A stretch of 64,000 bases of DNA from Escherichia coli (lineage in GTDB: Bacteria > Pseudomonadota > Gammaproteobacteria > Enterobacterales > Enterobacteriaceae). The position numbers were made by a program. Below are positions 24,001 to 27,000 of this stretch, piece after piece. The stretch lies in the NCBI RefSeq assembly GCF_044647545.1, contig NZ_CP172818.1. One strand, written 5' to 3'. Every line of letters begins with the position of its first letter. The first letter of the stretch is position 1.

Positions 24001-27000
24001 GCGCGTAGATAGGTTGCACGCCTTGCGGATCGCTTAAGGTTTGCAACCCCAGTGCCGCGACCGGACCGTCAGTGCCGTAAGCCATTGCGGCATTAACGCC
24101 AGAAGTTTGCTGGGCAGCGGCTTTAATCGTCACCGCCGTGTCGCCACCAGCCAGTGACAGTAACTGATCCTGATCGAGTTTAAAGTCGTAGGCTTTTTCA
24201 AACGCGGGTAACGCATCGGCGCGTTCGATAAACTCTGCCGAGGCTGCCAGTTTGAAGGTGCCGCCCTCTTTCAGATAACGACTCAGGTCAGCAAGCGAAG
24301 TGAGTTTGTTTTTCTCTACCACATCCTGACGCACGGCGATGGTCCAGGTGTTATTTGCAGGCGCGGGCGTCAGCCAGATTAACTTGTTTTGCTCTGCATC
24401 GAGTTTTTTGACTTTCTCATAGCCTTGCTGCGCGTTTTTCCATGCCGTATCGTTTTCATCTTTAAAGAAAAACGCGCCATTGCCAGTATATTCCGGATAG
24501 ATATCCAGCTCACCAGAAGTGATCGCCCCGCGCACTACGGGAGTCGTTCCCAATTGCACTTTATTTACCGTAGGAACGCCGTGACTTTCCAGCACCTGCA
24601 AAATGATATTGCCGAGCAGCGCGCCTTCGGTATCGATTTTTGAACCGACTTTAACGGGGGAAGCCGCCTGTAGCGGCAGGCTCACGGCTGCCAACAAAAC
24701 CAGTGAACCTGCCCAGACCTTTGAGAGTGGCATGATGCTTTCCTCATTCTTTTACTGTTGTTTTCAGCGAATTAAGAGAAAAGCATAGTTGATAATGGCG
24801 GGGTTAGCCTGAGCGGAAGGATTCAGTTGCAGAATCAGATAAATACTTAAAGGGCATATTTTGCCCGGCGTTTCTTGCCGGATGCGGCGTAAACGCCTTA
24901 TCCGGCCTACAAACAGCGAAAATTCAAGAGGTTAAAAACCCCTGTAGGCCTGATAAGCGCAACGCATCAGGCAAAGGGCGCAAACATCGCGCCCTGACTA
25001 AAGTATTACAGCAATTCAAACTCGCCTTTCTTAACGCGTGCGGAATCAGTGCCGATAAAGACATTGAACTTGCCAGGCTCGGCGTCATATTTCATCTGTT
25101 GATTCCAGAACTTCAGCGCCTCGATATCAATCGGGAAGCTGACGGTCTGGGTTTCGCCCGGTTTCAGGGTGATTTTCTCAAAGCCTTTCAGCTGTTTTAC
25201 CGGGCGACTCATGGAAGCCGTCACATCCTGCAGGTACATCTGAACTACCGTCGCCCCTTCGCGCTTACCGGTGTTCGTCACCTGCACGCTGGCGGTCACT
25301 TTGCCGTCACGCTTCATGGTCGGCGCAGAAAGTTTCACATCAGAGACGGTGAAAGTGGTATAGCTCAGACCATAGCCGAACGGATAAAGCGCCCCGTTAG
25401 CTTCATCAAAATAACGCGAAGTGTATTTGTTCGGCTTGTCGGCATTATACGGGCGACCGGTATTCAGATGACTGTAGTACACCGGGATCTGCCCGACAGA
25501 ACGCGGGAAGGACATCGGCAGCTTGCCGGACGGGTTGTAATCGCCAAACAATACATCGGCAATTGCATTACCGCCTTCAGTCCCCGCAAACCAGGTTTCC
25601 AGAATCGCATCCGCCTGCTGATCTTCTTTCACCAGCGCCAGCGGACGCCCGTTCATCAGCACCAGCACCAGCGGTTTACCGGTGGCTTTCAGCGCCGCAA
25701 TCAAGTCACGTTGGCTTTGCGGAATAGTGATATCGGTACGGCTGGAGGCCTCGTGCGCCATCCCCTGAGCTTCACCGACCACAGCCACCACCACATCAGA
25801 TTGCTTCGCGGTTTGCACCGCTTCATCAATCATCTCTTGCGGCGAGCGCGGGTCGACTTTGACCGCCTCTTCATACTGATTCAGGAAATCGATAATGCCT
25901 TTGTCACTGGTGACGTTCGCCCCTTTGGCGTACAACACTTTACCGTTTTCACCGACGGCATTTTTAATCCCGGTCAGTACGGTCACGGATTGATCGGCAA
26001 CACCGGCTGCGGACCAGCTGCCCATCACGTCACGTTTGCTGTCCGCCAATGGCCCAACCACCGCAATGGTGGCTGATTTTTTCAGCGGTAACGTTTCGAG
26101 ACGGTTTTTCAGCAACACCAGGCTTTCGCGTGCCACTTCACGCGCTTCTTTGCGGTGCAGGCGGCTTTCGGCATTGGTATCCACCGGGGCAGACTCTTTC
26201 GGACCGAGATGGCTGTACGGGTCGTTAAACAACCCCATATCATATTTAACGTTCAGTACATGACGGGCAGCGTCATCCAGCTCTTCCATCGTCACTTTGC
26301 CGGATTTGATCAACCCAGGCAGATACTTCGAGTAATACTCGTCGCTCATACTCATGTTGATGCCGGATTTCAGCGCCACGCGCACCGCATCTTCCGGGTC
26401 TGCCGCTGTGCCATGTTTAATCAGCTCTTTGATTGCGCCGTGATCGGAAACGGTGATGCCTTTAAAGCCCCACTGGTCGCGCAGGACATCTTTCAGCAGC
26501 CAGGAATCGGAGGTGGCTGGCGTGCCGTTCAGCGAGTTCAGCGCCACCATCACCGCGCCGCTGCCTGCGTCCAGCCCCGCTTTGTACGGCGGCATATAAT
26601 CATTAAACAGGCGCTGCGGACTCATATCGACGGTGTTGTACTCTTTACCGCCTTCTACCGCGCCGTAAGCGGCAAAGTGTTTGACGCTGGTCATCACCGA
26701 GTAGCGATCTGCCGGACTTTTACCCTGCATCGCTTGCACCATGGTTTTACCCATTATTGAGGTGAGATACGTATCTTCGCCAAAACCTTCGGAAGCACGT
26801 CCCCAGCGCGGATCGCGCGAGACATCGACCATCGGTGCCCAGGTCATATTCAGGCCATCATCTGCCGCTTCATAAGCAGAGACACGCCCGACTGTTTTCA
26901 CTGCATCGAGGTTAAAAGACGAGGCCAGACCGAGACTAATCGGGAACACCGTGCGCTGACCGTGCAGCACGTCGTAAGCAAAGAAAAGAGGAATTTTCAG

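Follow-up and report, generated by a model that had tools for sequence, protein, structure and literature searches.

Repetitive extragenic palindromes (REPs) of Escherichia coli, or palindromic units, are reportedly the subject of work by Higgins (1982), Stern (1984), and Gilson and Bachellier. A REP is an imperfect palindrome of 30-40 nt with a GTAG/CTAC foot, and a bacterial interspersed mosaic element of type 1 (BIME-1) is a single-copy combination of one y and one z1 REP around a long L linker, often with an IHF site (PMC3333891). We analyzed a 64,000-nucleotide stretch of an E. coli chromosome (assembly GCF_044647545.1, contig NZ_CP172818.1; hereafter the window), which spans metG to psuK, approximately 2.195-2.259 Mb in K-12 coordinates, and in which an earlier note had pointed to REP/BIME palindromes at five intergenic sites. 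The flagged sequences are very probably members of the enterobacterial REP family; this is our favoured explanation for the sites as a whole, including the identity of the first as a BIME-1. That first site, 24876-24973 in the spacer between osmF and bglX, is a complete, textbook BIME-1 (RIB/RIP), in which a y REP and an inverted z1 REP enclose an L linker of 33 nt. Comparison with other genomes revealed that the ancestral state of this locus is kept in the window, and the copies behave as old, static residents decaying by deletion.

A profile hidden Markov model for nhmmer was built from 28 REPs of three K-12 regions. Since these regions are unrelated to the window, the profile test is free of circularity. 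The profile matched a y REP at 24875-24913 on the plus strand (E = 8.8e-14), a z1 REP at 24942-24974 on the minus strand (E = 8.8e-08) and three further REPs on the plus strand: z2-like at 31745-31781 (E = 3.8e-08), y at 38040-38070 (E = 6.7e-10) and z2-like at 57903-57939 (E = 1.4e-06). A degenerate y-type REP at 31708-31733 (E = 0.006) and, at 41810-41827, a half-REP (E = 0.013) gave weaker matches on the minus strand. At 61095-61112 (plus strand) and 61125-61136 (minus strand) REP heads only were aligned, with E values of 0.18 and 0.69. Two gapped patterns joining head and tail (GCC[G/T]GAT-N8-22-YTTATCNGGC) gave 3 and 2 matches, five in the window, compared to 0.00 and 0.01 expected from shuffled sequences. 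The y REP at 24876-24910 is identical to the modal y REP of the unrelated K-12 regions that supplied the profile training set. When a 106-nt query covering the cluster was searched, at least 40 places were found in each of 5,426 chromosome records, and the query was matched in 5,425 of 5,426 genomes. The REPs beginning at 24876 (the y copy), 31745, 38040 and 57903 fold into hairpins of −21.3, −14.9, −24.2 and −22.3 kcal/mol, with z scores of −5.1, −3.5, −5.0 and −5.9 relative to shuffled sequences, and each stem contains a one-base mismatch. Taken together, profile, pattern, modal y identity, hairpin mismatch and copy number identify these sequences as REP family members.

The result bears out the REP/BIME identity proposed in the earlier note, which copy number and extragenic position also support. 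The three stretches that it had called canonical (24870-24975, 31745-31792 and 38041-38070) are present where it placed them, with profile E values of 8.8e-14 to 8.8e-08, and the one it had called REP-like at 57906-57939 is as good a REP as those (E = 1.4e-06), though it lacks the CTAC foot. The profile search that it had suggested was run and five sites matched, so the absence of any match to the consensus, which it had named as the contrary outcome, did not occur. Its second REP-like palindrome, at 61096-61135, is present as a perfect inverted repeat but fails the REP profile and is a deletion derivative, as discussed below. As a list of sites the note was incomplete, since the degenerate copies at 31708-31733 and 41810-41827 had been missed. 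The term "clusters" holds for 24876-24973, which is a true BIME, but for no other site.

Two simpler searches were discarded. Short motifs are enriched in the window (GCCKGATG, 18 occurrences versus 5.3 expected; CTTATCMGGC with one mismatch, 13 versus 6.6), but despite this enrichment they are too unspecific alone to be used as site calls. A Stern consensus with fixed spacing (GCCKGATGNCGRCGYNNNNNRCGYCTTATCMGGCCTAC) gave no match at up to 3 mismatches, its spacing being wrong for the y and z1 types. The K-12 RefSeq feature table holds no repeat_region rows for the corresponding stretch, and in an Rfam scan the REP sites were covered by no family.

All five listed sites are byte-identical in an independent complete genome, FDAARGOS_497 (NZ_CP033850), and are therefore not assembly noise. 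This genome and several genomes of the ST648 type (a sequence type) show 100% identity to 24300-25500, and over 9554-34372 an alignment of the window with FDAARGOS_497 gave 24,819 identical bases out of 24,819. Gene flanks were mapped directly in the window with the annotation of reference genomes. Each of the sites is intergenic and lies 3′ of genes, 4-32 nt from a stop codon.

The main cluster occupies the 272-bp spacer between osmF (23816-24733) and bglX (25006-27303), both on the minus strand. It lies upstream of the promoter region of osmF (yehZYXW) and, relative to bglX, 32 nt downstream of the stop codon (25006-25008). Its left half is the y REP TGCCGGATGCGGCGTAAACGCCTTATCCGGCCTAC at 24876-24910 on the plus strand, with the CTAC foot at 24907-24910. 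It is followed by the L linker at 24911-24943 and by the inverse z1 REP at 24944-24973, which reads TGCCTGATGCGTTGCGCTTATCAGGCCTAC on the minus strand and has its foot as GTAG at 24944-24947 on the plus strand. The two REPs stand tail-to-tail across the linker, and neither pattern nor profile searches detected a further REP in the spacer. A GC-rich hairpin that is not a REP, GGGCGCGATGTTTGCGCCC on the minus strand at 24976-24994 (−12.8 kcal/mol, z = −3.6), is located between the bglX stop codon and the BIME, so that the order along the bglX mRNA strand is stop codon, GC hairpin, z1, L and y. The whole BIME-1 can be folded as a single long hairpin of −44 kcal/mol (z = −4.9). On the other side, just left of the y REP, GGGCATATTTTGCCC followed by GGCGTTTCTT forms a small hairpin at 24852-24866 (plus strand) that scored as terminator-like; both the window and the genomes of E. 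albertii and Escherichia sp. E1V33 have it undamaged, and it is disrupted in K-12-type alleles.

The linker aligns with BIME-1 linkers of arcC-yqeB, barA-gudD, pepB-sseB and ubiA-plsB, with an invariant core AAAT.CAA.A..TT, and the L + z1 segment is 81-85% identical to its best paralogous BIME-1 copies. The IHF consensus is WATCAANNNNTTR; the IHF-like core ATTCAAGAGGTTA at 24922-24934 deviates from it by one mismatch, the same as in other L linkers. Across five Escherichia orthologs the blocks (A)AAA(T/A)TCAA and TT(A/G) are kept while the rest of the linker changes freely, the four bases between WATCAA and TTR being gagg, taga, cagg, caaa or caag depending on the ortholog. The linker of E. 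coli E69 contains a perfect IHF match, AATCAACAAGTTG. This is the pattern expected if IHF contacts are constrained; IHF binding is plausible here. The "possible IHF sites" of the earlier note thus apply to the linker within 24876-24973, where the candidate core is found, but not to other sites.

Stable hairpins placed directly after stop codons could also be ordinary Rho-independent terminators, or GC-rich hairpins that arose by chance and belong to no repeat family; within the L linker itself (24927-24943, bglX strand), the scan predicts a hairpin that resembles a terminator and is followed by a T-rich tail. We give this explanation almost no credence. In terminator scans no REP stem at any site was followed by a U-tract and no terminator-like site overlapped a REP stem. 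No intrinsic terminator was predicted at the four sites other than osmF-bglX, where the linker hairpin and the hairpin at 24852-24866 were the only ones scored. Chance does not account for a profile from unrelated loci that matches at E values down to 1e-13, nor does a terminator specific to one locus account for sequences of which each genome holds 40 or more copies. Since U-tracts are missing, the REPs are 3′-untranslated region (3′UTR) structures and not classical intrinsic terminators. The earlier note had suggested that the palindromes mark transcript boundaries: their positions 3′ of genes fit this, though not as classical intrinsic terminators.

K-12 carries only the y REP at the osmF-bglX locus, and the 62 bp by which the window is longer correspond to L + z1. 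Among the 5,426 complete E. coli genomes, no more than 75 have L + z1 joined to the bglX flank. Allele lengths were determined with an anchored 601-nt query and representatives of each allele were inspected. Allele A, the one in the window (span 601, ~1.4% of genomes), has y, L and z1 complete. Allele B (span 580, ~24%) has y, L and the head of z1 left; allele C, found in K-12 and MC4100 (span 539, ~42%), has y only. The segment missing from allele C is flanked on both sides by CAAAGGGCG in allele B. Allele D, which includes ST131 (span 518, ~20%), retains y plus ~15 nt from the beginning of L, with an ATT microhomology at the junction. It has lost the GC hairpin of 24976-24994, which the outgroups and the other four alleles (A, B, C and G) have kept. 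In allele G (span 477, ~10%) nothing is left: allele alignment revealed that the missing 124 bp are bracketed in the window by a 7-bp direct repeat, AAAGGGC, at 24849-24855 and 24973-24979. Relative to the full element the deletions are thus of 21, 62 (K-12), 83 and 124 bp, and their end-points fall at short direct repeats or microhomologies. All alleles keep ~115 bp upstream of the osmF start codon, so the deletions remove only sequence upstream of the promoter-proximal region.

The rarity of the full element, present in 1.4% of genomes (75/5,426), together with the solo y REP of K-12 and the CAAA that flanks the 62-bp difference, might be taken as a sign of ongoing REP mobility, with L + z1 gained recently beside a solo y in one lineage, for example by RAYT copying. 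We consider such a gain highly improbable. An invariant 24-mer of the osmF 5′-untranslated region was scanned across species-representative genomes, and the complete y-L-z1 unit was found at the same site in all four outgroup genomes: those of E. albertii and E. whittamii and two more divergent ones, from Escherichia sp. E1V33 and E. coli E69. At osmF-bglX, BIME-1 is thus the ancestral condition of the genus Escherichia. Alleles B and D keep different pieces of L and z1, which only deletion from a full element explains, and so both derive from it; outgroups and nested leftovers together refute a recent insertion. A donor copy is also missing, since the best paralog in any genome is 81-85% identical. 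Finally, the indel end-points differ from the RAYT cleavage sites GGCC|TAC and TGCC|TGAT (PMC3333891). RAYT cleavage was rejected as the source of the indel, as the end-points are 2 nt off on both sides and cleavage would give the wrong junction. We conclude that decay is the direction of change at this locus: in ~98.6% of complete E. coli genomes the BIME-1 is partly or entirely gone, through at least four independent deletions. The polarised direction and the population frequencies are new detail for osmF-bglX; they leave the classification of the element unchanged.

At the remaining sites the REPs are solo or decayed, and we infer that they have the same 3′UTR role in yohD/yohF, cdd, yeiI/nupX and yeiL/psuT. 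In the convergent 118-bp spacer between yohD (ending at 31694, plus strand) and yohF (from 31813, minus strand), the z2-like REP GCCTGATGCGACGCTGGCGTGTCTTATCTGGCCTAAC at 31745-31785 on the plus strand has an altered foot, CTAAC (31781-31785). The degenerate y-type REP at 31708-31733 (minus strand), 5-14 nt after the yohD stop codon, stands head-to-head with it. The two form an inverted y + z2-like pair with 14 nt between the GCC heads, a single, decayed unit. The fold of the degenerate copy (31700-31738) is not significant (z = −0.6). The K-12 ortholog of 31708-31733 matches the profile with E = 1.5e-06, and the yohD-yohF site has decayed differently in K-12.

The y-type REP at 38040-38070 (plus strand) is a solo copy 6 nt past the cdd stop codon (38031-38033), in the 149-bp spacer between cdd (ending at 38033) and sanA (from 38183), both on the plus strand. 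It is followed by CTTG instead of CTAC, and it is conserved in K-12. The half-REP at 41810-41827 (minus strand) is a remnant in the preA/mglC spacer, where K-12 has four REPs and ~170 bp more than the window. The same spacer of FDAARGOS_497 contains the half-REP and a two-head perfect palindrome. In a side-by-side comparison of this spacer, the window reads gcccgccggag at 41829-41839 where FDAARGOS_497 has 31 nt that include the perfect two-head REP palindrome TGCCGGATGCagcGCATCCGGCA; either there was a real deletion at the palindrome, or the assembly is wrong where a strong hairpin occurs.

Two sites lie downstream of the paralogous genes nupX and psuT. In the convergent 55-bp spacer between yeiI (ending at 57898, plus strand) and nupX (from 57954, minus strand), there is a solo z2-like REP at 57903-57939 on the plus strand, with a GCCGGAT head and TCAT in place of the CTAC foot; K-12 has a REP, a linker and a z1 here. 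The 68-bp spacer between yeiL (ending at 61073, plus strand) and psuT (from 61142, minus strand) contains the REP-derived perfect palindrome ATTGCCGGATG ... CATCCGGCAAT at 61095-61136, with a loop of ~20 nt and no foot. Its 10-11 bp inverted repeat (61096-61135) is built of two REP heads. A four-way alignment of the two loci in the window and K-12 revealed a shared REP(+)-linker-z1(−) unit in varying states: complete at K-12 nupX, and reduced to the REP at window nupX and K-12 psuT. By this alignment the palindrome at 61095-61136 is the same unit minus both tails and the linker, with the heads fused. Such a deletion of tails and linker explains why the profile fails there though the K-12 ortholog passes.

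A perfect 10-11 bp stem that lacks both CTTATC and CTAC and fails the profile beyond the heads (E = 0.18 and 0.69) might instead be an independent element unrelated to REPs, such as a protein-binding palindrome or a bidirectional yeiL/psuT terminator. This is very unlikely: the orthologous sequence of K-12 can be recognised as a REP and has the CTAC foot (E = 3.5e-06), its right half and flank align with the inverted z1 and flank downstream of K-12 nupX, which marks it as two paired REPs that lost their inner part, and a similar two-head palindrome occurs at preA-mglC of FDAARGOS_497. At the 3′ ends of the two paralogs, over the last ~60 coding nucleotides and flank (57954-58013 and 61142-61201), K-12 nupX pairs with window psuT at 95% identity, compared to 88-90% between orthologs. 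Over the 240 nt beyond, the orthologs group together (97.5-98.8%). Such a pattern suggests that ectopic exchange (gene conversion) took place between the REP-bearing 3′ ends of nupX and psuT.

By analogy with other REP loci, the REP hairpins in the bglX 3′UTR transcript would impede 3′-to-5′ exonucleases and would attenuate read-through in a partly Rho-dependent manner; REP325 both attenuates transcription, in part through Rho, and stabilises mRNA, and strains differ in where their REPs lie (bioRxiv 10.64898/2026.03.23.713779). osmF is a core RpoS-dependent gene (PMC10654073), and its operon would be shielded by such attenuation from the transcription of bglX. At the level of DNA, IHF would bind and bend the L linker. 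With regard to distance, the cdd and yeiI REPs lie 6 and 7 nt from the stop codon. These distances, taken as distances only, are within the 15 nt at which, in the work of Liang, Rudd and Deutscher (2015), REPs are said to be able to stall terminating ribosomes. BIME-2, the tandem type, is reportedly a gyrase target (Espeli and Boccard 1997). Gyrase enrichment is found at tandem BIME-2, with y REPs preferentially cleaved (PMC6379681). The profile search detected no tandem BIME-2 anywhere in the window, which makes a strong gyrase site unlikely; the "possible gyrase sites" of the earlier note are accordingly a weak proposal, the window containing only one degenerate, non-tandem y/z2 pair.

Several points weigh against this assignment and the roles attached to it. 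The z1 hairpin is weaker than the others (−12.3 kcal/mol, z = −1.9). The CTAC/GTAG foot needed by RAYT is confined to the BIME-1 pair, and the four REPs without it are probably inert for RAYT processing. Each functional step proposed above would be an extrapolation from other REP loci, and REP effects are context-dependent, not uniform (bioRxiv 10.64898/2026.03.23.713779). Moreover, the whole element is missing in ~10% of genomes and the IHF linker in most, with no known consequence, which argues that it is dispensable.

A more ambitious proposal is that the osmF-bglX BIME-1, kept throughout the history of the genus Escherichia, acts upstream of the osmF (yehZYXW) promoter as a functional module that depends on IHF, and/or as a read-through insulator, and that the independent deletions in E. 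coli lineages, at least four in number, are adaptive regulatory changes and not a neutral decay. We regard it as unlikely. If it were true, the alleles would be a natural allelic series in which REPs act as "dials" on the expression of an osmoprotectant transporter. In any case, natural isolates with these alleles are a possible native test bed for REPs as context-dependent 3′UTR terminators or stabilisers and for IHF at BIME-1 linkers, and the polarised series is a modestly useful by-product and a neat illustration of BIME decay. The practical consequence is one of annotation hygiene: the palindromes should be masked as REP/BIME, since unmasked they could be taken for mobile elements, terminators or regulatory RNAs of a new kind. 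The elements are already known and represent ordinary E. coli biology, correctly recognised; the caution in the earlier note that they are expected for E. coli and not novel was appropriate.

Several other features of the window were recorded. The yehK-yehL spacer (9334-9553) is homopolymer-rich, with runs of C18, C8, C7, T9 and A7, and no complete E. coli genome matches it at 80% coverage or more, though from 9554 onward the identity to FDAARGOS_497 is 100.000%. FDAARGOS_497 carries at this place an intact zorO type I toxin gene (MDTLTQKLTVLIAVLELLVALLRLIDLLK, minus strand), and the copy in the window is garbled and frameshifted. The segment looks like a sequence-quality artefact of the source assembly, of the poly-G/poly-C type, and not like real biology. 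Next to it, OrzO-P antitoxin RNA was matched in Rfam at 9660-9735 (plus strand; 98.9 bits versus a gathering score of 60). With the zorO-like open reading frame at ~9386-9475 (minus strand), this match marks a zor-orz type I toxin-antitoxin locus. K-12 lacks its toxin side (~250 bp) and has only the orz-like part left.

The yohP-dusC spacer (34373-34746) contains a GC-rich, highly structured segment of ~270 bp that belongs to a dispersed repeat family, with a median of 4 places per genome and copies 88-94% identical. It is 100% identical to K-12 across 290 nt, and inverted and 88% identical relative to FDAARGOS_497; in Rfam it has a sub-threshold match to TwoAYGGAY alone (30.9 bits versus 43). 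A Peptidase-S11 RNA motif (Rfam) at 30190-30270 (minus strand; 72.8 bits versus a gathering score of 34.8) lies directly upstream of pbpG, the gene for a D-alanyl-D-alanine endopeptidase; this known cis-regulatory candidate is in its expected place. The genes yehH (encoding a DUF4132 protein) and mdtQ, at 1448-5236 and 32627-34063, are annotated as intact in a near-identical strain and as pseudogenes in K-12.

Compared with described systems, the REPs of the window correspond to the y, z1 and z2 classes of E. coli in their length (30-37 nt), GCC[G/T]GATG head and CTTATC[C/A]GGC arm, in their extragenic position 3′ of genes and in the hundreds of copies per genome. The two REPs of the BIME-1 also share the CTAC/GTAG foot, and the y copy is the modal K-12 y. 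They differ from typical E. coli REPs in that four copies are without the CTAC foot, 31708-31733 and 41810-41827 are degenerate, and 61095-61136 is a deletion derivative with two heads. The osmF-bglX element agrees with BIME-1, RIB (Boccard and Prentki 1993) and RIP in its single, non-tandem y and z1 placed tail-to-tail, its ~33-nt linker with the conserved AAATTCAA-N4-TTR core that matches the IHF consensus at all but one position, and its placement where a transcription unit has its 3′ end. Nothing structural differs, though unlike other L linkers 24911-24943 can form a small extra hairpin (GGGGTT..AACCTC). The yohD/yohF unit (31708-31785) resembles BIME-2, in which y and z2 alternate with a short S linker in tandem, in its head-to-head y + z2-like arrangement with a 14-nt distance (13 nt in K-12 REP325). 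It departs from BIME-2 in being single and non-tandem, with a degenerate y that folds poorly. As in the BIME length polymorphism described among strains (Bachellier et al. 1997, Genetics 145:551; Ton-Hoang et al. 2012), REP content differs between the window and K-12 at four loci: osmF-bglX, preA-mglC (where the K-12 cluster of four REPs is reduced to a half-REP), yeiI-nupX and yeiL-psuT. Where REPs are involved, most changes in intergenic length are explained by these differences. What osmF-bglX adds to that polymorphism, at one locus, is its direction, from an ancestral full element through at least four deletions, and the frequencies of the resulting alleles in the population.

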